Virus record (IMG/VR): IMGVR_UViG_3300045988_117795
Coordinates: 1-13,309 of that record
Length of the DNA stretch: 13,309 nt
Reading direction: 5' to 3' (one strand)
Origin: a virus
A program made the position numbers and the translations under genes. This document shows positions 1 through 12,921 of this stretch, piece by piece; position 1 is the first letter of the stretch; each line of letters begins with the position of its first letter. A model generated the notes under the pieces. It was not told the origin of the DNA and did not search any database. It was given only the letters and a program-made list of their open reading frames with translations.

Positions 1-378
1 AAAGTGTATCCATTGATTTTCGCGGACATTTGTTCACCCCACGTGGACACTCTGTTTGTCTCTAGCACATGGACAGTGTACACACATCATAGACAGTCAT
101 ATGACCATGTACAAAAGGTACAATGTATTTGTCACTGATATGTTTCACGTGAAACAACACATAGTTAGTCATGCCTAACACATCCGGAACAGTGTACACG
201 GCTCACGCACAAAACAGTGTATTTGTTTTCGAACATTTTGACAGTTTTTGACGAACAGAGCCGCCGGGTGTAATTATAGCCCCGGAAAAATCGTTGCGTA
301 TAGGGCCGTCCAGGGCTTCACAGACCGTTGTGTATATTGCACAAAATAGAGGGCGAATAATTGAGTAATTATTGTGTA
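1..378. repeat. Left inverted terminal repeat (ITR-L), 378 bp
   Basis: I checked block by block that 1-378 equals the reverse complement of 12932-13309 with no mismatch. Identity breaks at nt 379 (g, versus t expected from 12931). The repeat starts exactly at the window edge with AAAGTGTA. It contains no convincing ORF and is AT-rich and palindrome-rich. Confidence 0.97.
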
Positions 379-1241: not shown

Positions 1242-1895
1242 TTAGTATACCATTATACAAAACCGGTGTTTGAAATCGTCTATAATATACGTCTCCAAAT
1301 CGTTGCGGCGCATATCAAGTTCTTCCCGCATCATCTGTTGGGTAGTCGTAACACCGATATTACCGTATAGGTGTGCCGTATGTTTCACGCTTGTTTCTCT
1401 TGTTACTGTATTGTTACTATTGTTCGTGGCACTTGCCGTACTGTTAGCAGTGTCTGTCCCGGCATTTTTTGTGCGGTTTTTGAAAGTTTCTGTGTTAAAT
1501 GCCGTTTCGGATTCAGTGCTTTCGTTCGTTCCGTTCGCCGTGCTTTCGGTATTGCTAGTACTGTTACTCGTTCCTGTTTCTTTTTCGGTATTTGTGTCCG
1601 TGTAGTCCTCATTCCGGTCAAAATTGTGTATGGGGTTGTACTCGGCCGTCAATGCGGCTTCCACCCTCTGCCATTCCGGTAGTCTGGTATTGCTCCACGC
1701 TTTTAGAATCCGCTTGAACACATCAGCATTCGGGTAGAGGGCTTCCAACTGCCCCAATTCAGACAGAATTTCATCGACAAACTCTGCTTTATTTGCAGAA
1801 ATGGAATCCGGTAAAGCAAAATCGTCAAAAATAGTGGAGTCGTAGTTATACAGTCCCAGGTAACTGACCGTCGGGCGCATCCTGTTCCAGCACAT
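1242..1895 (-). CDS. Lower collar / head-tail connector protein (gp11 position) with an S/T/N-rich insert
   Basis: Assigned by synteny, as it lies immediately downstream of the portal gene. I moved the start to the ATG at 1895 because AAGGAGG lies 9 nt upstream; the track start at 1919 is a GTG without an SD. It overlaps the portal 3' end by 50 nt. 217 aa, with a 71-residue low-complexity segment. Confidence 0.5.
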   Translation of the reverse strand: MCWNRMRPTVSYLGLYNYDSTIFDDFALPDSISANKAEFVDEILSELGQLEALYPNADVFKRILKAWSNTRLPEWQRVEAALTAEYNPIHNFDRNEDYTDTNTEKETGTSNSTSNTESTANGTNESTESETAFNTETFKNRTKNAGTDTANSTASATNNSNNTVTRETSVKHTAHLYGNIGVTTTQQMMREELDMRRNDLETYIIDDFKHRFCIMVY

Positions 1896-2775
1896 TTGCA
1901 AATTCCTCCTTGTTCTCACGCCAGTCTACGGAAATTTCGATACCAAACATCTGTTTGGTTTTCTCGCAACTTTCCAGCCAGCCCTCTAGCCAGCTATCAG
2001 CCATGCACCGGGTTTCAAAATTGTTAATACCAATTTCGCCACTCGCTGTGCGCTCCCTCTTGTTATAGTTAGCGTTAGGTATGCCCACGGTGGTACAGAA
2101 CATATTATCGATATTTAGCAGTGCTTCTATCAGCCGGTCAGAAATGTAATTCTGCCCCACGTTTTGCTCAAAAAACGGGGTGCTGAACTCTCCATCGTCG
2201 GTGAACATGGACTTGTCAACTACAACTGCGGGGTCGCCGCTTGCCACACGGTCAAAAGCCTTCTTGAAACTTTCCGCAGTGGCATGATTTTTCGCCCCGA
2301 AAACATACGCCAGCCGGGAATTGAAAAGGTTAACCCCCATAGCCTGCGCCGCCAGTGCCATATAATCCCCGTAAAAGCTGACCAGGTCCATAATGCCGCC
2401 CCAATCCCGGGTACATTTGAAAACTGTACACTGCTCATTGATAATAGGGGATTTGATACCTTGCAATAGCGGGTTTGCGATATAATACTGCCGTGGCTGA
2501 TAGAATACATTGTATCCTGACGGCTGACCGCCCTGCGGAATCACTCCGTACTTGTCCGTCTCGATAATTGCTACGGACCCTCCGATATAGAGCGAATATA
2601 GGAAATAGTCCTTGCTCCAAAACTCTGGCATTGTCCACTCAAAGACAGACATGGCCTTTTGGAGCAAATACCGCCGGAAAAATGTGGCTGTTGCGGTGTT
2701 GGTTACATGGACTCCGGACGGAGATGTTTTTGCATCAATCACGTTTGAGTAATTGTAATAGTATGGTAAATCCAA
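1846..2775 (-). CDS. Portal / upper collar connector (phi29 gp10-like)
   Basis: 309 aa, the same length as phi29 gp10. FEWTMPEFW corresponds to phi29 FEWENLP, and NKRERTASGEI corresponds to phi29 KKERMVTDEV (both remembered sequences). TTG start at 2775 preceded by AGAGGTGA 6 nt upstream. Its position between the tail knob/lysin genes and the lower collar fits. Confidence 0.8.
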   Translation of the reverse strand: MDLPYYYNYSNVIDAKTSPSGVHVTNTATATFFRRYLLQKAMSVFEWTMPEFWSKDYFLYSLYIGGSVAIIETDKYGVIPQGGQPSGYNVFYQPRQYYIANPLLQGIKSPIINEQCTVFKCTRDWGGIMDLVSFYGDYMALAAQAMGVNLFNSRLAYVFGAKNHATAESFKKAFDRVASGDPAVVVDKSMFTDDGEFSTPFFEQNVGQNYISDRLIEALLNIDNMFCTTVGIPNANYNKRERTASGEIGINNFETRCMADSWLEGWLESCEKTKQMFGIEISVDWRENKEEFANVLEQDAPDGQLPGTV

Positions 2776-2781
2776 TTTGTG

Positions 2782-3342
2782 TCACCTCTTTGCCATATAC
2801 GGCTTGAATTTGAAAAGCATCCAAGCGGGAATCCCCGTCGGAGTGGGAACCGGTCCGGGTGGAAAATCCGGGTGGTAGATAAACCCCTGAAATGCATAGT
2901 TGCCATTGATTAGCCATTGCGCCATGTTGGTATTTCCAACTGTTGTGTTGGTCCAGAAATACCCCTCCATATCCGGGGGATATTCGGTCAACGGTCTACG
3001 CCATGCGGATTGCGATATAAGCAGGGTCCCGTCAGTGTTGACCCGCTCCACCACTGCCACGTGACCGGCCCCGCCGTCCAGGTCCTCATAACACGCAACG
3101 GCCCCAACCTGTGGAACCTGTCCGGTCCGGTATGCGCCACTCGCTAGGGCATCTGACCACCACTCGCCGCCGTTGGAAGTTGGTAGTGCCGGACGGCCCC
3201 CACCAATTTCCCAAAAACGGCCCCAGGCATAGCAAGTGCAGTTAGGTAGACCATAGCCCGACTGATAAAACACATTATCAGTATAGTATTGTGAATTCTG
3301 CCACATTCCGTTAGAATCCAGACGTGGAACAAATGTAGACAT
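2782..3342 (-). CDS. CHAP-domain peptidoglycan hydrolase, probably tail-associated (gp13-like role)
   Basis: Candidate catalytic Cys in NCTCYAWGRFWEIGG and candidate catalytic His in GHVAVVERV, with spacing typical of CHAP domains. The ATG at 3342 overlaps the tail-knob stop (TAATG). It is embedded in the tail module rather than the lysis cassette. Confidence 0.75.
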   Translation of the reverse strand: MSTFVPRLDSNGMWQNSQYYTDNVFYQSGYGLPNCTCYAWGRFWEIGGGRPALPTSNGGEWWSDALASGAYRTGQVPQVGAVACYEDLDGGAGHVAVVERVNTDGTLLISQSAWRRPLTEYPPDMEGYFWTNTTVGNTNMAQWLINGNYAFQGFIYHPDFPPGPVPTPTGIPAWMLFKFKPYMAKR

Positions 3343-4816: not shown

Positions 4817-5986
4817 TCAATCCAGACACAAAACAATTCCGTTTTCCGTGAAATCGTTCATCCAACGCACGGTGTAATGGTCCCAACGAACACTGTAACC
4901 GCCCCGGGCGTTAAGCGGGGTAGTGCCGCTCCACTCGTTAATAAGGCTTGCCCTGATAGCTTCCTCGTCAAAAATTACCCCGAAAACGTCAGCAGTAACA
5001 GCAGACGTTGCGGTGGTAATGGTGCCATCGGGTGCCAGATAGGACGGGGTAACATTGACGGTTGCGGGGCTGTCAATGGACTGCCAGAAACTGACCGGCT
5101 CAAAATCCACAACTTTCAGGTAATCATCGTTGTAGGTGGTGGACATGACGGTCGTGTCAATCATGTTCGCATCATCGGAGAGCAAATACACCTTCTGTCG
5201 GTCCAGCGGGGTATGGCGGGTAATGGGCTTGCCGGTTACATTGATATGATATTTGACGGTCCGATTGGTCAACTTTTCGGACAGCGTACGGATATAACCC
5301 AGCATCCAGCGGCAAAAATCCGTCCAGTTTTCGGGCTGTCTCACGGTTTCGGCAGTGAGGGTCTTTCCGGTGATTCCGTTGTACTTGGTAACAAGGTGGA
5401 TAACGTTGTCCGTGTCACCCTTGAGTTTGCCGCCGATAAAGTTCAGCACTGCCAGCCGGGCTTCCGTTTCCTTATCCTGCTGAACCATATCGTCAAGATT
5501 CTGATACAACATCGCCCAGAAACGGCCCAGTTCGGCGGGGCTGGAAAATGCCACGTCCAACTGGTCCTTAAAAATGGGCAGGTCCCGGGAGTAGGTGTTC
5601 CCGCCGTAGAAATTCAGCTGAAGAATCTTCGGCTTGTGAATCTCATACATATCAACGGACTGATTGTCCGCAAGAGTGTACTCCACGTTATTCTCCGGGT
5701 CCTTGTCCACAACCTGGACTTTGCGGGTATAGCCGCCCCATTTCTGACTGTCAACGTACAAACCGCTGAATTTCCCACGATAAGGACGGATGGAAAAATA
5801 GGTGGTAGACAGCACCTGACTGATTGCGTTCAGCAGGTTATCATAACCGCATTTAAGGGCAGTCGTGCCGACACTTGCAAAGTTGGCAGTGGTAATTTCA
5901 CCAACATCTGCCGCTCCTCTGACCTGTGCCAGCGTAGCCTTCAGAAGGGTGCTTACCTGTTCAAAATTGAGTTCATTCTGTGCCAT
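4817..5986 (-). CDS. Major capsid protein
   Basis: 389-aa ORF immediately after the scaffold gene and before the tail knob (phi29 gene-8 position). ATG at 5986 with AAAGGAG upstream. It has the largest uninterrupted structural-type composition. The call rests on synteny and size, not on a named motif. Confidence 0.75.
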   Translation of the reverse strand: MAQNELNFEQVSTLLKATLAQVRGAADVGEITTANFASVGTTALKCGYDNLLNAISQVLSTTYFSIRPYRGKFSGLYVDSQKWGGYTRKVQVVDKDPENNVEYTLADNQSVDMYEIHKPKILQLNFYGGNTYSRDLPIFKDQLDVAFSSPAELGRFWAMLYQNLDDMVQQDKETEARLAVLNFIGGKLKGDTDNVIHLVTKYNGITGKTLTAETVRQPENWTDFCRWMLGYIRTLSEKLTNRTVKYHINVTGKPITRHTPLDRQKVYLLSDDANMIDTTVMSTTYNDDYLKVVDFEPVSFWQSIDSPATVNVTPSYLAPDGTITTATSAVTADVFGVIFDEEAIRASLINEWSGTTPLNARGGYSVRWDHYTVRWMNDFTENGIVLCLD

Positions 5987-6002
5987 TGTTCATATACTCC
6001 TT

Positions 6003-6353
6003 TCACTTCTTACCCCGGTTTCTGCCGGGGTCCAGGATACTAGCGGCAACGTCTGCCGCCGTCATTTCGGTATCGGTCTGCCGGGACACGTTAATCATGG
6101 CCCCCTGAACAGCTTTCATCATATCCTCAAACTGTTTCTGCATGGTGGACATCATTTCCTCCATGGGGGACTTCTCCGGCTCCTGCTTCTGCTCCTGCTT
6201 CTTCTCCGGCTCCTGCTTCTGCTCCTGCTTCGGGGGGTCCTGCTTCAGGGCTTCCTGCTTCGGGGTTTCATCCGTCAAAATGGGGGCCAGGGCTACAATC
6301 TGTTCAGCCGTGAAACCCGCATCTTTCAGAGCGGTAATCTGTTCGATTTTCAT
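6003..6353 (-). CDS. Scaffolding protein
   Basis: 116 aa, highly charged and helical-looking, with a K/Q/E/P repeat core (KQEQKQEPEK twice). It lies directly upstream of the capsid gene. Its ATG overlaps the endolysin stop (ATGA). Confidence 0.65.
   Translation of the reverse strand: MKIEQITALKDAGFTAEQIVALAPILTDETPKQEALKQDPPKQEQKQEPEKKQEQKQEPEKSPMEEMMSTMQKQFEDMMKAVQGAMINVSRQTDTEMTAADVAASILDPGRNRGKK
6171..6230. repeat. Perfect 30-bp tandem duplication inside the scaffold gene
   Basis: cttctccggctcctgcttctgctcctgctt occurs at 6171-6200 and again identically at 6201-6230. In frame it encodes KQEQKQEPEK twice. Confidence 0.95.
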
Positions 6354-7021
6354 ACATTTCTCTCCTTTTCGGTAATATAGACATCATAACCGGCCTTTTT
6401 CAGTTTCGCCGCAAGCTTTTCTGCGTTCGCTTTGTTCTTAAACGCACCCATCTGAACACAGTAAAGAACATCCTTGTTCGTTTCCTGTTTGGGGGGAACA
6501 TAGTCCACTTCGAACTCTGCACAAATGCTTTCAGCAATGGCTTCGGCAATATCCGTTCTACGGGCCATGATAAAGGCCGCTCCTGCCGGGGTATCGTGAA
6601 AATCAACCTCAAACAAGACGGAAGTCGCCGCCATCATGCGGCACTCGTAGAACGTCTTATTTTGCTGGACACTTGACCAACGGTCCGTAGGCTGTCCGAT
6701 TTTCTTCATCGCATAGGACAGAGTATTCGCAAGGCTTTTACCGGCCTCATAGTAGTAGGCAACACAGCCACGGGCAACTCCTGCCCCACCTGCATTGCTA
6801 TGCAAGGCCAAATAATAATCATAGCCCAGCTTGTCGCAGTCGGCGGGTCTGCCGTCAATGCCCATCTCCGTATGATAGCAGATTTTATGCTTCACCCCAC
6901 ACCGGTCCAGAGCCTTGCCAACTTCTGCCGCCAGCAACTCCATTTGCTCCATCTCGCTACCGTAGGTCCCGCAACCGTAGTTTCTGTTCTGGTCGGACGG
7001 ACTAATGTATATACTAGGCAT
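6350..7021 (-). CDS. Endolysin: N-acetylmuramoyl-L-alanine amidase (Amidase_3 type) with C-terminal SPOR domain
   Basis: N-terminal ISPSDQNRNYG...E...M, then ALHSNAGG and EVDFHD, match the metal-ligand pattern of Amidase_3-type phage amidases. The C-terminal YCVQMGAFKNKANAEKLAAKLKKAGYDVYI matches the SPOR consensus. SD AAAGAGGTG upstream of the ATG at 7021. Confidence 0.85.
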   Translation of the reverse strand: MPSIYISPSDQNRNYGCGTYGSEMEQMELLAAEVGKALDRCGVKHKICYHTEMGIDGRPADCDKLGYDYYLALHSNAGGAGVARGCVAYYYEAGKSLANTLSYAMKKIGQPTDRWSSVQQNKTFYECRMMAATSVLFEVDFHDTPAGAAFIMARRTDIAEAIAESICAEFEVDYVPPKQETNKDVLYCVQMGAFKNKANAEKLAAKLKKAGYDVYITEKERNV

Positions 7022-7024
7022 ACA

Positions 7025-7228
7025 TTACACCTCTTTGATGTTGGACAGCTTACCTTCCAACCGCTCCATCACCTGCGTGTTCCGGTCCAGAGCATCTACC
7101 CACGCTTTACTTTCGATTGCGTGCGCTTCCCGTTCCTTCTGCTGAGAATAGAACAGGTAGCAAACACAAGCAATCGGGAAACCCACATTGCTAATCAATG
7201 TGGTAATCAACTGTACAGTTTCACTCAT
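7025..7228 (-). CDS. Holin, BhlA/UviB-like (single N-terminal TMD plus coiled coil)
   Basis: Start moved to the ATG at 7228 (GAAAGGGGAAAATTT-ATG). 67 aa. One hydrophobic helix, LITTLISNVGFPIACVCYLFY, is followed by QQKERE and a charged helical tail, as in the BhlA LLFY..KERE pattern (memory). It lies immediately upstream of the endolysin. Confidence 0.7.
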   Translation of the reverse strand: MSETVQLITTLISNVGFPIACVCYLFYSQQKEREAHAIESKAWVDALDRNTQVMERLEGKLSNIKEV

Positions 7229-7393
7229 AAATTTTCCCCTTTCATGTTCGTTTTTTGGTTGCGGGCCGGGGGAGTTGCACCCACCGCTCGCCATTCTCGC
7301 CGCTACTCGCTCCTGCAAATGCGTGACCCCGTTCTTGCGGTGGACTGCCGCACGGGCTTCCTTCCGGGAGTGTCCTTGCCCACGGGGTCACTA
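7229..7393 (-). ncRNA. GC-rich structured RNA element: 5' leader of the late/lysis operon, or a discrete RNA such as a prohead-RNA candidate
   Basis: This ~165-nt interval has no credible ORF and lies directly downstream of a consensus promoter. By hand count, 93 of 136 nt (7261-7396) are G or C. This is visibly higher than the rest of the window, which I did not count. A three-way junction can be drawn: 7323-7330 pairs with 7384-7391 (8 bp), enclosing hairpins tgcgg/ccgca and gggc/gccc. A second bulged G-rich/C-rich hairpin lies at ~7263-7291. Function unknown. Confidence 0.45.
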
Positions 7394-7398
7394 CGCAC

Positions 7399-7427
7399 AA
7401 TATAGCACATTTGTTTGATTTTGTCAA
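7399..7427 (-). promoter_or_regulatory. Near-consensus sigma-A/sigma-70 promoter for the late/lysis operon
   Basis: The minus strand reads TTGACA (7427-7422), a 17-nt spacer, then TGcTATATT (7407-7399). This is a perfect -35 with an extended -10. The predicted start is ~7392. The -35 hexamer contains the ATPase TGA stop codon. Confidence 0.75.
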
Positions 7428-8467
7428 GCACCAAAATAGCGGTTTAACAAAATTTCACACAAACGTTCTTCAAAAATTATCTTGCCGGTTATATACTTCG
7501 CCCATATCCAGTTATATTTCCTGCGGAAATTCGTCAACTCGGCATCTGATAGGCCGAACCGTGTCGGACCGCCGGAAACGTGGGTAGTAATATAGAGGTT
7601 TTCGCCGCCCTTGCGGCGGTAGATACACAACTCCCCGATATTTACTAATGGGTCATAATTGCGTAGGTCCTCCGACTTGTTTGGCATCGCCAGGTCCTCC
7701 CCGATATACTTGTTGTCCAGGGCCATTGCACCAAATTCTGTCCCAGCGGTCATACGATATAGGGCAGTTTTGCTTTTTGCCGCTGAAATAGGGCTGTCCA
7801 TGATATTTACTAACATGATACCCCGGTCCGGCATATAACTAAGTTGTTGATGTTTGCGTTGCATCTGCACAACTTTGTTCACCAAACCCAACCCCATATA
7901 GATTGCATTATCCAACCGGTTAGAGTTGGAGAGACAGAGCAACTTGACAGGCGGTTTCCCCAATAATTCCCGGTTACGGTTGATAGTTTCGTATGCATTC
8001 ATCAGAGCCATACATTCTTCCCGGATAGGACGTGCGTGTGGTTCGGGGATAAATTCATCGTATATAATTATACTATATTGCTCACCGTTAAAACCTCTCA
8101 AATTACTGATAGTTGATAACGCCAGCATCATTCCAACCAGTGGACCGTCCGGGACTAGCTTATCTCCGTCCGGTACTCTGCGAACGATTTCCGTTGTATA
8201 TTTTCCAGATTTTGACAGGCCCACACATTCGCCAATATCTTTATTCAGCCGGGCAAATGGGTTATTGCTTTCGTTCGCCGCAAGAAATTCCGTTTCGGTC
8301 AACGTGCGCCGTAGATAGATAAATGGTATTTCATTTTCAATCACATATTTCAATGCGCCATAGGTCTTGCCGACACCTCGTGCGCCGGTACAAAATATAA
8401 AGGGGTATGGCTTCTCAACGATTTTCGGAACGTCAAGCCAGCCCTCCGGCGTGTAAATATTTTCCAT
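7424..8467 (-). CDS. DNA encapsidation ATPase (phi29 gp16-like)
   Basis: Walker A is FCTGARGVGKTYG. FIYLRRT, Walker B IIIYDEFIPE, LCLSNSN and GTEFGAMALDNKYIGED each line up with phi29 gp16 (GARGIGKSY, FIYVRRY, IVFDEFIRE, ICLSNAV, GTEYGEMSLDNQFIGDS; remembered sequence). Start moved to the ATG at 8467 (GGAGGG 5 nt upstream), giving 347 aa. Confidence 0.9.
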   Translation of the reverse strand: MENIYTPEGWLDVPKIVEKPYPFIFCTGARGVGKTYGALKYVIENEIPFIYLRRTLTETEFLAANESNNPFARLNKDIGECVGLSKSGKYTTEIVRRVPDGDKLVPDGPLVGMMLALSTISNLRGFNGEQYSIIIYDEFIPEPHARPIREECMALMNAYETINRNRELLGKPPVKLLCLSNSNRLDNAIYMGLGLVNKVVQMQRKHQQLSYMPDRGIMLVNIMDSPISAAKSKTALYRMTAGTEFGAMALDNKYIGEDLAMPNKSEDLRNYDPLVNIGELCIYRRKGGENLYITTHVSGGPTRFGLSDAELTNFRRKYNWIWAKYITGKIIFEERLCEILLNRYFGA

Positions 8468-8519: not shown

Positions 8520-8864
8520 TTAGTCGGCGTACACGCAGTTGATAAACTCCCTGCCGCCCTTGCTGGTGCCGGTGGAAACACGGATGTGGTGAACGTCCAG
8601 TCCGGTCTTAGCGAAACATTCCAGCATCGCCTCGAAAGACTCGATGAACGTTACGGAGTTCGTGGCATACATCTTTTCTCCGGACTTGATAGAGAGGATT
8701 TTCCGCATCTCACCGGTCTTGCGGTCGGCATCCGCAAACAATGCCCACTTGTCAAGGGCCAGTGTCTCACCCTTAACAGAGGTCATTTTCTCGATTTCCG
8801 GGGACGTGGTGAGAAAATACAGGTCTGCGCCCTCTACGTTCTTGCTCATTTTGATAATTTCCAT
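8520..8864 (-). CDS. Single-stranded DNA-binding protein (phi29 p5-like), tentative
   Basis: 114 aa. The C-terminal HHIRVSTGTSKGGREFINCVY resembles phi29 p5 FKVKVVQGTSSKGNVFFSLQL, and the preceding YATNSVTFIESFEAML resembles YSAISKTVAEAASDLI (memory). It has its own consensus promoter. ATG at 8864 with AAAGGAAG 8 nt upstream. Confidence 0.5.
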   Translation of the reverse strand: MEIIKMSKNVEGADLYFLTTSPEIEKMTSVKGETLALDKWALFADADRKTGEMRKILSIKSGEKMYATNSVTFIESFEAMLECFAKTGLDVHHIRVSTGTSKGGREFINCVYAD

Positions 8865-8922: not shown

Positions 8923-8951
8923 ATTATATCAGTGCCTATTCCATTTGTCAA
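8923..8951 (-). promoter_or_regulatory. Consensus sigma-A/sigma-70 promoter in front of the SSB gene
   Basis: The minus strand reads TTGACA (8951-8946), a 17-nt spacer, then TGaTATAAT (8931-8923). Both hexamers are perfect and the TGn extension is present. The -35 hexamer contains the polymerase TGA stop. Confidence 0.8.
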
Positions 8952-11047
8952 TGTTTTTCTTTTGTAATTTCCCTTAACAATTTGTCATATTCTGCCGTGA
9001 TACCTAGTTGATACGTACTATCTCTAATCACTACATTAGCAGTTATCGGTAGTATGTGTCCGTCAACAGATAGAGACGTGATAGCCGGGTGGTCGTTGTA
9101 CATCAGTTCGGCACCACCAGCCCTGCGGAACAAAAAGCCAGGATTTGTGTTGACAAACCGCTCCAACCCCTTGCCGTACTCGTCCCCGGCGTCCAACTCC
9201 GAACCGCCCTCTTTTTTACTTACTCCGGCTATAGTGACGTGTGTTTTCCCGTTTTCGTCCGTGTATGCGTACTTTTTGGCCCCCAAAGTTGCAAAAGTGG
9301 GGTATTTTCCATCCGGTTCAAACACGCCCATATAATGGGCTTCGCCGGAAGGGTCAACAGCCCAGGCCCCAGACTTTTTGCTTGCCGCTATACGGTCATT
9401 ATTATATGGTGTCCAGTCGGGGAGAACATTTGTCTCTAGGTACTTGACAGAATCGGTGTCACAATATACAAATCTGGTTCCCACCAAATCAATACCGAGT
9501 TGCAAGTGGTATCTCGCCCAAGCCGTTGTCCAAACACCCCACGCATATGTCAAAAAGGCATTACGCTGAGCATCTGCAAGGGCTTCACCAATATCCAAGG
9601 CATCTTCGCCCCATTCTCCATCAAAATAGACCTCAGGCTTTGCGGGGTTTTGCGCCGTCATACCATATACGCTATTCAACTTCGCCTTGCTTTTTGCGTA
9701 TATAAGTTCCTGCCCGGGGACGTTCTTCAACTCCGTCTTTTTGTGATAAAGGTCACACAAAACTCCCACCATTTCCGGCGGCAACTTGCCATAGGTGGAG
9801 TAATAGCCGCTTATCACGGTAAAAACCCCGGTGTAATGGTCAACGATAACTTGCAAGTCAATATCCGTCACTGTCAACTCTAGATAGTCGGCGGCAATCA
9901 CTCGCCCATTGTCATAGACCCCGCCCACAATATTCCGGCACTTATCCCTTGGGATATATGGGCATCCGTCTGATATATGCCGTAAATGGCAATTTGATAT
10001 AGCAATCCGGGCCAGTGTTGCAGTTCCTCTTTTCTGCATTGTCAAAAGTCTATCCACTGTGGACAGGCCCAGCTTTTTGAACTCACCCATCGGAAATAGA
10101 TTATTGCACTGGACATCCGGGTAACTGCTGGAACGGTCTGCCGATATTACATTGTGTAATACTTTCCCGGCATAATGGCGGTTGGCGTGAGTATTCCCAC
10201 CCCGGAACGCTTCACGGAGATAGGTATATACTTCCGTATCTGGAAAGATTGCACGAATTTTATAAACCAACTCTTTATTGCTTCGTATGGCATTTCTCAC
10301 GTCTCGCCGTACATAACCGGTTGACGTGCGGGGGATAGTATCCAGTGTATCACCGTCCGCTTGCATTTCATTTGCTAGTGCTTCGCATAGTCCTTGGGTA
10401 TCGTTTGTACAGTATGCAAGTTCATTTTGTGTCATTTCTGTCCACGGGAATCGGATTTTTGTATAATCGAACTCTTTTCCAGATAGTTTTGTGTGTTCGG
10501 CGTGCATTTTGTTCGTAAATGTGTCCAAACTCATATTAGAATGCAGATATGAACATCTAAATTCTATATTACCCCATGTACAAGCAAGGACTTTCCGGGA
10601 CTTTACCGCCATAACATCTTCCCGATGGAAATTGTGAATGCCGGAAAGAAACTGGAATTCATACGACAAATTATGAACCCATATCACAAGCCGGTAATCA
10701 TTTTGCACAATATACTCGTTCCAACCGTCAATCATGGCGGTAAATTCATCCCACGTCCTGCCTATTATCATACACTTTTCGTGTAGACACAAAGTCCAGA
10801 TATACATGATTGATTGCTCATTCCGGCGGGTTTCTACCCATTCGCCCCTGATTTTCTCCGGGGCTGATAGTTCGGGAAAATCTTCCGGCTTTAGCCGGGT
10901 TGTTTCAATGTCAAAAGCGGCAATTTGATTTAGCGTGACCGCCTCATTTCTTGCGCTTTGTTTTTTTCGTCCCCCCTTGCTTTCCAGAGGTTTTGCCGCT
11001 TGTAGATACGGGAGCGCGCTTCCGGCGGTTATTCTTTTTAACTCCAT
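8948..11047 (-). CDS. Protein-primed family-B DNA polymerase
   Basis: Exo I AFDIETT, Exo II HNLSYEFQF, Exo III YCTNDTQGLCEAL, motif A DRSSSYP, motif B KAKLNSVYG, motif C VYCDTDS, and KxY GAKKYAY. Order and spacing match phi29-type polymerases. Start set to the ATG at 11047 (AGGGAGG 9 nt upstream), giving 699 aa; the track start at 11086 is a GTG without an SD. Confidence 0.95.
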   Translation of the reverse strand: MELKRITAGSALPYLQAAKPLESKGGRKKQSARNEAVTLNQIAAFDIETTRLKPEDFPELSAPEKIRGEWVETRRNEQSIMYIWTLCLHEKCMIIGRTWDEFTAMIDGWNEYIVQNDYRLVIWVHNLSYEFQFLSGIHNFHREDVMAVKSRKVLACTWGNIEFRCSYLHSNMSLDTFTNKMHAEHTKLSGKEFDYTKIRFPWTEMTQNELAYCTNDTQGLCEALANEMQADGDTLDTIPRTSTGYVRRDVRNAIRSNKELVYKIRAIFPDTEVYTYLREAFRGGNTHANRHYAGKVLHNVISADRSSSYPDVQCNNLFPMGEFKKLGLSTVDRLLTMQKRGTATLARIAISNCHLRHISDGCPYIPRDKCRNIVGGVYDNGRVIAADYLELTVTDIDLQVIVDHYTGVFTVISGYYSTYGKLPPEMVGVLCDLYHKKTELKNVPGQELIYAKSKAKLNSVYGMTAQNPAKPEVYFDGEWGEDALDIGEALADAQRNAFLTYAWGVWTTAWARYHLQLGIDLVGTRFVYCDTDSVKYLETNVLPDWTPYNNDRIAASKKSGAWAVDPSGEAHYMGVFEPDGKYPTFATLGAKKYAYTDENGKTHVTIAGVSKKEGGSELDAGDEYGKGLERFVNTNPGFLFRRAGGAELMYNDHPAITSLSVDGHILPITANVVIRDSTYQLGITAEYDKLLREITKEKH

Positions 11048-11657
11048 CTTCTGCCGCCTCCCTGTATTCCTTCCGCAACGTTCCACCCGCAGAGGATTTT
11101 AGAAATTCTGCAAAATTCGCCTTTACCTTTTCCGGGTCAATGTTCAATTCCTTCATATCCCTAATTAGGTCAATGATTTGTTCACTATCATACATTTCTG
11201 CAAGGCCCTGATGGATACGCATATTCAAAAATTCCGTGAACAAATGGAAATCCTCATTTGTGCTGATAAAGTCAATCCCACGGGACTGGAATGCTTCAAT
11301 GTGTTTATTTATATTTTTCCTAATGCCTCTTATGGTAGTTTTTTGCGGCTTCTCGAAAAATTCAACTAGATTTTGCAATCCAACGGCAAGGTCTGCGGGG
11401 TTGGTCAACTTGCTAGCCGGTCTGAGATACTCCTCAAACGTTTTATATCCATCTGTCCAAGCAAATCCGGCCTTTTTGATACTCCGCAGACGTTGCATTG
11501 CCGTTTTGCGTAGTCTGATATACTCGTCCTTTGCAGACCGTACGGCATTAGGGTCCCCGGCCCAATCATAGACTTTCGACGGGTCGTAGTAGTAATCCGG
11601 GAGCTGGTAACGGCTCCCCTCTGGTTTTAACCATTTTGTTTGCTTTCGTCTTGCCAT
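10944..11657 (-). CDS. Terminal protein (TP) candidate
   Basis: It lies immediately upstream of, and overlapping, the polymerase gene, as phi29 gene 3 does. 237 aa from the ATG at 11657, similar in size to phi29 TP. YIRLRKTAMQRLRSIKKAG resembles phi29 TP YARLVKNTKAKIARTKKKYG (memory). Both termini are strongly basic. A linear genome with an ITR requires a TP. Confidence 0.6.
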   Translation of the reverse strand: MARRKQTKWLKPEGSRYQLPDYYYDPSKVYDWAGDPNAVRSAKDEYIRLRKTAMQRLRSIKKAGFAWTDGYKTFEEYLRPASKLTNPADLAVGLQNLVEFFEKPQKTTIRGIRKNINKHIEAFQSRGIDFISTNEDFHLFTEFLNMRIHQGLAEMYDSEQIIDLIRDMKELNIDPEKVKANFAEFLKSSAGGTLRKEYREAAEDGVKKNNRRKRAPVSTSGKTSGKQGGTKKTKRKK

Positions 11658-12893: not shown

Positions 12894-12921
12894 ATTATAC
12901 CACACATCCTTCTAATTTCAA
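12894..12921 (-). promoter_or_regulatory. Right-end early promoter, firing inward
   Basis: The minus strand reads TTGAAA (12921-12916), a 16-nt spacer, then TGgTATAAT (12902-12894). It lies 11 nt inside the ITR boundary and upstream of the whole early gene string. Confidence 0.75.

Follow-up and report, generated by a model that had tools for sequence, protein, structure and literature searches.

To our knowledge, the prohead or packaging RNA (pRNA) is the only known RNA to form part of a viral DNA-packaging motor; it is also widely used in RNA nanotechnology. The question raised by the locus described here is whether such an RNA is encoded in IMG/VR virus record IMGVR_UViG_3300045988_117795, analyzed at its full length of 13,309 nucleotides (nt) and referred to below as the window. 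The window is a whole linear phi29-like phage genome of 13.3 kb, with genes nearly all on the minus strand. Between the stop codon of its packaging ATPase gene (7426-7424) and the ATG of its holin gene (7228-7226) lies a non-coding gap of 195 nt (7229-7423), the sole long one in the gene string, the runners-up being 83 and 47 nt. We conclude that the RNA encoded in this gap is probably a miniature pRNA.

A three-way-junction RNA behind the ATPase gene

An initial annotation, made from the sequence alone, had singled out this gap and proposed that it opens with a consensus promoter, followed by a GC-rich structured RNA of ~165 nt in which an 8-bp helix (7323-7330 with 7384-7391) closes two hairpins into a three-way junction. 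The promoter (TTGACA, a 17-nt spacer and TGcTATATT) was borne out, scoring 11/12 with an extended -10 element. G and C make up 67.6% of 7257-7392 compared with 46.9% of the genome, although a recount gave 92 of 136 nt rather than 93. The helix was also confirmed, extending to 10 bp (7382-7391/7323-7332), and it does close two hairpins into a conserved three-way junction; however, the unit shared by the whole family is 71 nt long (7392-7322), not ~165 nt. The features of the promoter and the core RNA are as follows; R1 and R2 are covariance models.

7422-7427, minus strand: -35 hexamer TTGACA, with the ATPase stop codon TGA (7426-7424) inside it
7399-7407, minus strand: extended -10 element TGcTATATT after a 17-nt spacer; predicted transcription start ~7392
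7322-7392, minus strand: pRNA-like core, a three-way junction of 71 nt (R1, 52.6 bits, E 5e-11; R2, 67.5 bits)
7382-7391, minus strand: 5' strand of the A helix, GUGACCCCGU, pairing with 7323-7332 (folding, R1)
7378-7381 with 7354-7357, minus strand: C helix of 4 bp, GGGC with GCCC
7371-7377, minus strand: CE bulge AAGGACA, confined to the 5' side; its GGAC (7375-7372) complements GUCC of the D loop
7358-7370, minus strand: E hairpin CUCC CGGAA GGAA, abutting the 3' strand of the C helix with 0 nt between
7352-7353, minus strand: linker of 2 nt between the C 3' strand and the D hairpin
7337-7351, minus strand: D hairpin GCGG CAGUCCA CCGC; GUCC (7345-7342) in its loop is complementary to the CE bulge
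7333-7336, minus strand: junction strand AAGA from the D helix to the A helix, an A-rich, GA-containing linker typical of the family
7323-7332, minus strand: 3' strand of the A helix, ACGGGGUCAC, pairing with 7382-7391 (folding, R1, covariation)

Thermodynamics did not make a convincing case for this fold, with z scores for folding energy of 0.0 for the whole 164 nt and -2.3 for an 81-nt core. Because there was no energy signal for the 164 nt, and because the single-sequence minimum free energy (MFE) structure paired GGAC with GUCC intramolecularly, we did not rely on single-sequence folding, and the case for more than chance is therefore comparative.

Using the ATPase as bait, we collected 80 IMG/VR loci (given L numbers here), with ATPase identities between 37% and 95%. 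At most loci, a promoter followed the ATPase stop codon, with a GC-rich stretch of ~70 nt after it, and four close relatives were 89-92% identical to the window across the gap. MAFFT put the A helix and the loops out of register, first with 16 seeds and then with 7, and R1 was therefore built from a gapless seed of six distant sequences (L006, L007, L008, L011, L012 and L036), whose ATPases were 38-46% identical. As the window and its clade had been left out of this seed, the R1 score of the window represents an independent test; the core at 7322-7392 (minus strand) was its sole match in the window. R1 matched 46 of the 80 loci, in each case on the ATPase strand.

The initial annotation had named conservation and covariation among relatives as the test of a structured RNA, and the result was very strong covariation in all four helices, as well as in a loop-loop pairing described below. 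In alignment A5 (41 distinct sequences), 97.4% of cells were paired, compared with 57% when shuffled and 29-43% when slid, with compensatory changes in 20 of 23 pairs and a covariation score of 0.966 (0.21 when shuffled). Similar values were obtained with alignment A9, whose 40 distinct sequences came from a scan blind to proteins: 94.7% of cells were paired (shuffled 59%, slid 32-46%), 19 of 23 pairs had compensatory changes and the covariation score was 0.835 (shuffled 0.167). Compensatory changes occurred in 11/11 model pairs of the A helix and all 4 pairs of the D stem covaried; in the C helix, 100% of cells were paired and the inner two pairs covaried. The E stem showed a compensatory U-A to A-U change in L001 and L003, while its loop, a CNGAA pentaloop, was near-invariant across the family. 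Of 50 aligned members, 45 had a CE bulge of 7 nt, the 3' side having 0 nt. The consensus structure of the model is:

(((((((((((<<<<-------<<<<_____>>>>>>>>,,<<<<_______>>>>,,,,)))))))))))

G-U pairs were present at several positions and matches were confined to the late-gene strand, which indicates that the structure is that of an RNA from this strand. Gap indels of 1, 2 and 3 nt between close relatives rule out a coding region, and the element was retained at ATPase identities of 35-46%.

A further test concerned the CE bulge and the D loop, which in the window contain the complementary segments GGAC (7375-7372) and GUCC (7345-7342). Because the covariance model does not model pairs between CE and D, their pairing provides independent evidence. 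Column-wise counting was dropped, since subfamilies differ in loop register, and the longest Watson-Crick duplex within each sequence was instead compared with that obtained when D loops were permuted among members. The 79 distinct RNAs had 51 CE/D loop combinations and 38 different duplexes, such as GCACA/UGUGC, UUGCA/UGCAA, AUGCA/UGCAU, ACGC/GCGU, AAUCA/UGAUU, GUAUCA/UGAUAC and UGAAGUA/UACUUCA. The mean longest duplex was 4.3 bp, compared with ~2.5 bp after permutation, and in 20,000 permutations the observed duplex sum was reached 0 times; covariation of this kind does not separate intermolecular from intramolecular pairing. In phi29, the loop pairing was first taken for an intramolecular pseudoknot, until trans-complementation experiments showed otherwise. 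Complementary and covarying CE bulge and D loop are a hallmark of pRNA, and in phi29 the same kind of complementarity (AACC/GGUU) drives intermolecular ring formation (PMC5066667, PMC12670572).

The promoter is positioned to make this RNA, the predicted start at ~7392 being the nucleotide immediately 5' of the A helix. In most of 47 distinct contexts, a -10-like hexamer ended 5-8 nt (mode 7) ahead of the start of the RNA model, which would place the 5' end of the transcript in the A helix, as in pRNA. An ATPase stop codon within TTGACA recurred in many relatives, so that the RNA gene appears to be packed flush on the ATPase gene.

Rfam 15 was searched with the gap by itself, with the entire window and with seven relatives; no relevant family was found, and nothing at or near the gathering score. 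The sole match inside the gap, Tymo_tRNA-like (11.6 bits, E 4.2), was dismissed as chance, and a scan for tRNA and tmRNA found none. The combination of a three-way junction with a loop-bulge contact brought to mind a hammerhead or other self-cleaving ribozyme, an idea that was rejected, there being no Rfam match and the junction strands being too short.

Beyond the core, the last ~65 nt at the 3' side (GCGAG repeats and a G/C hairpin) were found only in the window phage and four close relatives. The features of this region are the following.

7259-7318, minus strand: clade-specific 3' domain, with an outer helix of 7 bp (7318-7312/7265-7259) and an inner hairpin (7286-7280/7272-7267)
7287-7310, minus strand: GCGAG repeats in the internal loop of the 3' domain, invariant in 5 close relatives
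7229-7258, minus strand: A-rich leader with the Shine-Dalgarno sequence of the holin gene, GGGG, at 7239-7236

The initial annotation had noted three CTCGC repeats (GCGAG in the RNA strand) at a spacing of 9-10 nt, and these are present at 7310-7306, 7300-7296 and 7291-7287, as is the bulged hairpin with G-rich and C-rich strands that it described. RNAalifold found two compensatory changes in the outer helix among 5 close relatives. A further suggestion, that CUCCCCC in this domain pairs with the Shine-Dalgarno GGGG, gave the right coordinates but was not supported as a pairing, the sole substitution among the 5 close relatives (in L003) being uncompensated. As had also been observed, the window has no canonical terminator 3' of the RNA; a T-rich stretch followed the A helix in 34 of 47 relatives.

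Phage genome, distribution and a stand-alone form

The inverted terminal repeats of the window are 392 bp long (1-392/12918-13309) and 99% complementary, which indicates that the genome is complete, linear and protein-primed. Its genes are those of a phi29-like phage.

8948-11086, minus strand: protein-primed family-B DNA polymerase, PolB (profile searches)
8520-8864, minus strand: protein resembling the phi29 SSB, a weak match (profile searches)
7424-8467, minus strand: gp16-type DNA-packaging (encapsidation) ATPase (PF05894, E 5.5e-19), with the probable start MENIYTPE
7025-7228, minus strand: holin (PHROG 4898, E 4e-11), the opening gene of the late block of lysis and structural genes
6350-7021, minus strand: Amidase_3/SPOR endolysin (profile searches)
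4817-5986, minus strand: phi29-type major capsid protein (profile searches)
2782-3342, minus strand: CHAP-domain protein (profile searches)
1846-2775, minus strand: gp10-type connector (PF05352, E 5.7e-16; structure matches 7pv2, 7pv4 and phi29 gp10, 1h5w)

PF25622 was also matched in the Pfam search of the window proteins. Among PDB structures, the ATPase matched phi29 gp16 (7jqq, E 6e-16; also 5hd9) and gp11 of asccphi28 (7jq6). The closest GenBank relatives of the window ATPase came from human-faecal phage contigs without annotation (35-38% identity) and from the Guelinviridae phages AD70P2 and AD70P3 of Amedibacillus, and the phi29 ATPase was ~29% identical; a megablast search of the genome against GenBank phages gave no match.

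Several other features of the genome were observed. The terminal repeats carry mirrored promoter-like and hairpin sites, and an 11/12 promoter (12894-12921, minus strand) lies at the inner edge of the right repeat. A 12/12 consensus promoter with an extended -10 element (8923-8951, minus strand) is closely upstream of the SSB-like and ATPase genes. The minus-strand gene string is closed by a strong terminator hairpin at 666-756 (GGCCCCCGG...CCGGGGGCU and a U tract, minus strand); an Rfam match to rteR there (25.6 bits, E 2.5) was rejected as a chance match to what is merely this hairpin. Between the endolysin and capsid genes, ORF (open reading frame) 6003-6353 (minus strand) encodes a protein of 116 amino acids without family match, which may be a scaffolding protein; within it, at 6159-6277, are imperfect tandem repeats with a periodicity of 12-18 nt, of the CTCCTGCTT type on the plus strand. 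A 388-amino-acid ORF at 4877-6043 on the plus strand runs antisense to the capsid gene and is almost certainly no more than a shadow ORF.

The core RNA was found in more than 100 related contigs, the relatives including human-faecal contigs and phages of gut Firmicutes isolated from sewage. Scanning of 80 whole contigs gave a match at E <= 0.01 in 55, plus 1 borderline, and never more than one per genome. In the protein-blind scan of IMG/VR with the pattern GNNCANNNNNANNCCCGGAAGGNNGNNC, 120 stretches were returned, of which 100 were analyzed. True model matches were present in 55 of the 100, and a gp16-like ATPase was encoded on 55/55 of these contigs, whereas none of the 45 contigs with chance pattern matches encoded one; the association with gp16-encoding phages was thus exclusive. 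The RNA-positive contigs usually also encoded a connector, a capsid protein and PolB. Around the ATPase gene of Lactococcus phage asccphi28, there was no equivalent gap.

The ATPase gene is not always adjacent. In L093, L127, L132, L135, L144, L148, L240 and GenBank MT835998, the RNA was near the genome end, on the strand opposite to the ATPase gene. In MT835998, L127 and L093, a promoter lay 5' of the RNA and the holin and late genes 3' of it. Because holin and late genes follow even when the ATPase gene is distant, the constant neighbour appears to be the start of the late operon rather than the ATPase. The gene 3' of the RNA was mostly that of the holin; a lysin gene took its place in L021, and in L011, L013, L016 and L019 a PA-rich, scaffold-like repeat protein was encoded directly after the RNA.

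A different arrangement was found in the subgroup that includes L046 (14 distinct sequences), in which an RNA of 110 nt occupies the same position directly after the ATPase stop codon. According to RNAalifold, it has a bulged A helix of 6 + 9 bp, a 5-bp C helix, a CE bulge of 7 nt (CGUACAA), two E hairpins, a 5-bp D hairpin with the loop AUGUACA and an AAGAAU linker, the kissing duplex being GUACA/UGUAC. This RNA has its own promoter and ends in a 9-bp hairpin followed by UUUUGUUU, with compensatory changes in L050 and L077; after this covarying intrinsic terminator comes a separate promoter ahead of the late genes. The RNA of the subgroup looks like an autonomous gene, and this stand-alone form argues for a product that acts in trans.

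A palindrome, GTTTCACGTGAAAC, was observed between the -35 and -10 elements of the RNA promoter in L029, L030, L045, L048 and L074, and it also flanks the separate late promoter in the L046 group (~L046:4230-4300). It looks like an operator for a phage repressor of late transcription.

R1 and R2 gave no match in Amedibacillus AD70P2, Clostridium CI644P6, Clostridium CI55P1 or Eggerthella LE1-1. A divergent look-alike was, nevertheless, recovered by MFE folding after the packaging gene of AD70P2 (L082, ~6410-6473, minus strand) and AD70P3 (L286, ~205-268, minus strand), where it had been missed by the covariance models, including R2. It consists of a TTGACA-17-TATATT promoter, followed by A, C, a bulge of 8 nt, E with a (U/C)CGAA loop, D and a U-rich tail.

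A probable prohead RNA, or a late-operon leader

The initial annotation had put forward a pRNA analogue, a cis-regulatory leader or some other class of RNA. The first of these fits best, given the phi29-like genome, a dot-bracket grammar that is that of the pRNA model, and the covarying complementarity of CE and D. By the mechanism that we envisage, host RNA polymerase would start at ~7392 from the near-consensus, sigma-A-type promoter, and the first 71 nt would fold, paired 5' and 3' segments forming the A helix, with C, CE and E in one arm and D in the other. In phi29, the A helix is the arm on which the ATPase docks. If it worked as in phi29, each molecule would use GGAC of its CE bulge to pair with GUCC in the D loop of its neighbour, closing an RNA ring on the prohead's portal vertex to which the gp16-type ATPase would dock for packaging; we infer both the binding to proheads and the requirement for the RNA. 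As the window phage has no terminator after the RNA, late transcripts would start with it, and it could either be released by processing or be active while still attached.

Several findings weigh against a pRNA. The core is 71 nt, whereas pRNAs are 120-174 nt (118-120 nt for the core). Its A helix is 10-11 bp and unbulged, compared with ~25 bp with essential bulges in phi29; C is 4 bp rather than 9 bp, and D is 4 bp rather than the 5-6 bp of phi29-type pRNA. The junction linkers are 0/2/4 nt as opposed to 1/3/0 nt in phi29, and coaxial stacking would therefore differ from that in phi29. A basic RKR-type motif, which in phi29 gp10 is the pRNA-binding site, was not seen in the connector's N-terminus as called, which is weak negative evidence because the start codon of the connector is uncertain. 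The Rfam model of pRNA, RF00044, gave no match at E <= 10 in the window or its relatives. However, while RF00044 scored 145 bits on phi29, it gave no gathering-score match on B103 (L085) or GA-1 (L086), and it missed the annotated GA-1 pRNA (L086 1719-1879) even at E <= 10. Because it misses these genuine pRNAs, its silence on the window is uninformative, and RF00044 is much narrower than the biological class.

The remaining points on this side also bear on the main rival, which we regard as rather unlikely, namely that the RNA is a cis-acting 5' leader of the late operon. It would be a pseudoknotted three-way junction with intramolecular CE/D pairing, controlling read-through, translation or stability of the late mRNA, for example by switching in response to a protein or ligand, by processive antitermination or by stabilising the 5' end. 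In every member whose context was inspected, the L046-type subgroup aside, the RNA was the first transcribed element of the late operon, lying between the promoter and the first late gene; these members include L087, L093 and L127, in which 8-9 kb separate it from an ATPase gene on the opposite strand. In addition, the window has no terminator to separate it from the holin gene. The C helix is as long as the D helix (4 bp each; 5 each in the L046 group), which would put the CE bulge and the D loop side by side and equidistant from the junction, so that pairing within the same molecule could be possible. Finally, ~22-30% of members (21 of 96 contexts, compared with 1% of shuffles) carry a covarying segment, termed anti-E, that looks like a cis switch. 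It is 6-8 nt long, lies 7-17 nt past the A helix and upstream of the Shine-Dalgarno sequence, and is complementary to the 5' strand and loop of E (CCCGGA/UCCGGG, UCUCGGA/UCCGAGA and CGGACGGA/UCCGUCCG). Carriers include L006, L011, L016, L087, L127 and L191, and it is absent from the window. Anti-E could act as a conformational switch, or as a mask for the E loop in read-through transcripts.

Other results do not sit easily with a leader. The downstream gene is inconstant (holin, PA-rich scaffold-like protein or lysin), and the RNA of the L046 group is cut off from the late genes by a terminator and a second promoter. An expression platform is missing from the window clade and from most other members, kissing duplexes that vary from 3 to 7 bp on fixed 4-bp stems would be hard to accommodate in one rigid intramolecular fold, and the element is limited to gp16-encoding phages and has no Rfam cis-regulatory match. 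A miniature pRNA and a cis-acting leader are not mutually exclusive. Even if it were a leader instead, this would still be a new class of structured RNA, controlling late genes in very small phages.

Much less likely again is a small phage RNA that acts in trans but not in packaging, its role being, for example, titration of a host factor as a decoy or regulation of host or phage mRNAs. The strong promoter of its own, the stand-alone form with a terminator in one subgroup, and the near-invariant E loop, which suggests a conserved binding partner, would all be in keeping with it. However, it leaves unexplained the pRNA grammar, including the complementary CE and D loops, and the strict link with gp16-type motors, and the sole conserved single-stranded candidate for a seed is the E loop, of only 5 nt. 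The last alternative, a chance GC-rich spacer, DNA-level element or unannotated small protein gene, might draw on a 164-nt folding energy no better than that of shuffles and on mechanical ORFs that overlap the gap, but it is refuted by the massive compensatory covariation with G-U pairs, the restriction of matches to the late-gene strand, the 1-, 2- and 3-nt indels, the conservation at ATPase identities of 35-46%, the loop pairing and the protein-blind scan.

Returning to the prohead RNA, we lean, with less assurance than for the class assignment itself, towards a fuller proposal: that the packaging motors in a large clade of phi29-like phages of 12-15 kb are served by a minimal pRNA of 71 nt (~60% as long as the smallest active pRNA of phi29), that this RNA is transcribed as the leading part of the late transcript, and that in part of the clade anti-E masks the E loop until release. 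If so, unmasking of the E loop on release would couple pRNA maturation to late gene expression, and RNA-dependent DNA packaging would be an ancestral trait, widely shared in the phi29 supergroup and not a peculiarity of Bacillus phages. A need for pRNA in other phi29-like phages has so far been assumed and never shown. The family provides a covariation-supported candidate that existing models do not detect, with more than 79 variants and 38 loop-loop specificities that occur in nature; together with the look-alikes in the cultured phages AD70P2 and AD70P3, it makes the use of a packaging RNA outside Bacillus directly testable. Also brought within reach of experiment are the ancestry of RNA-dependent packaging in the lineage, how small an RNA can be and still scaffold a gp16 ring, and the way in which such an RNA is made when fused to a late mRNA.

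Comparison with known RNAs

Among cis-acting phage RNAs, put of HK022 consists of two stem-loops, and nut of lambda of a single hairpin (boxB) and boxA. Like them, the window RNA is promoter-proximal in a phage late or delayed operon, and its E hairpin, with a short GC stem and a purine-rich pentaloop, resembles boxB. However, neither put nor nut is a three-way junction with a covarying loop-loop helix, and in the L046 group a terminator lies directly after the RNA. No N-, Q- or Nun-like partner was identified.

The purine riboswitch has a three-way-junction aptamer with intramolecular loop-loop contacts. The likeness includes a three-way junction of ~70 nt with a closing helix resembling P1, a promoter-proximal position in a leader, and equal arms whose distal elements pair. 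In the window RNA, however, one partner is an internal bulge, and the contact is a hypervariable Watson-Crick helix of 3-7 bp rather than a conserved tertiary contact. Moreover, its junction is weakly conserved, most members have no expression platform, there is no Rfam match and the downstream gene varies.

Known pRNAs are those of phi29, B103, M2/Nf, SF5, GA-1 and other Bacillus phages of the Salasmaviridae, RF00044 covering the phi29 group. According to reviews from 2016, 2024 and 2025, pRNA is known only from phi29 and related Bacillus phages (PMC5066667, PMC11476376, PMC12670572). A survey with Infernal in 2025 added 12 more, the named ones being in the same Bacillus-phage families (PMC11476376, PMC12670572, PMC5066667). 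A pRNA is expected in phi29-like motors (PMC11476376, PMC12670572, PMC5066667; bioRxiv 10.1101/2020.07.27.223032), while a paper on phi29-like phages of Clostridium perfringens mentions it only as a partner of the ATPase (PMC3362512). Our literature search found no published report of the RNA family described here.

The pRNAs of phi29, B103 and GA-1 were missed by both R1 and R2. Because there is no sequence-model similarity in either direction, membership of the pRNA class rests on architecture and genomic setting. Two further differences are that the E loop, CNGAA, is near-invariant and that the window RNA heads the late operon, usually after the ATPase stop codon and without a terminator, whereas the pRNA of phi29 and GA-1 is a terminated early gene near the left end. 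As regards setting, both RNAs belong to phi29-like phages with a gp16 ATPase and a gp10 connector, and both have their own sigma-A-type promoter. As regards architecture, the alignment of RF00044 to phi29 runs A, <<<<<-<<<<, a 9-nt bulge, <<<<______>>>>, the C 3' strand directly, ',,,', <<<<<<_____>>>>>> and A; the order and type of elements are identical to those of the window model, while helix lengths and linkers differ. In both, the 5' and 3' segments form the A helix, closing a three-way junction with a C helix, a CE bulge on the 5' side only, an E hairpin abutting the C 3' strand, and a D arm. The primary sequence is hypervariable in both, and in both the CE and D loops are complementary and covary between phages. 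In the window clade, a second domain follows the core on the 3' side, which by its position may correspond to domain II, the dispensable domain of the 174-nt phi29 pRNA. This likeness suggests that RNA-dependent packaging motors exist well beyond the Bacillus phages.

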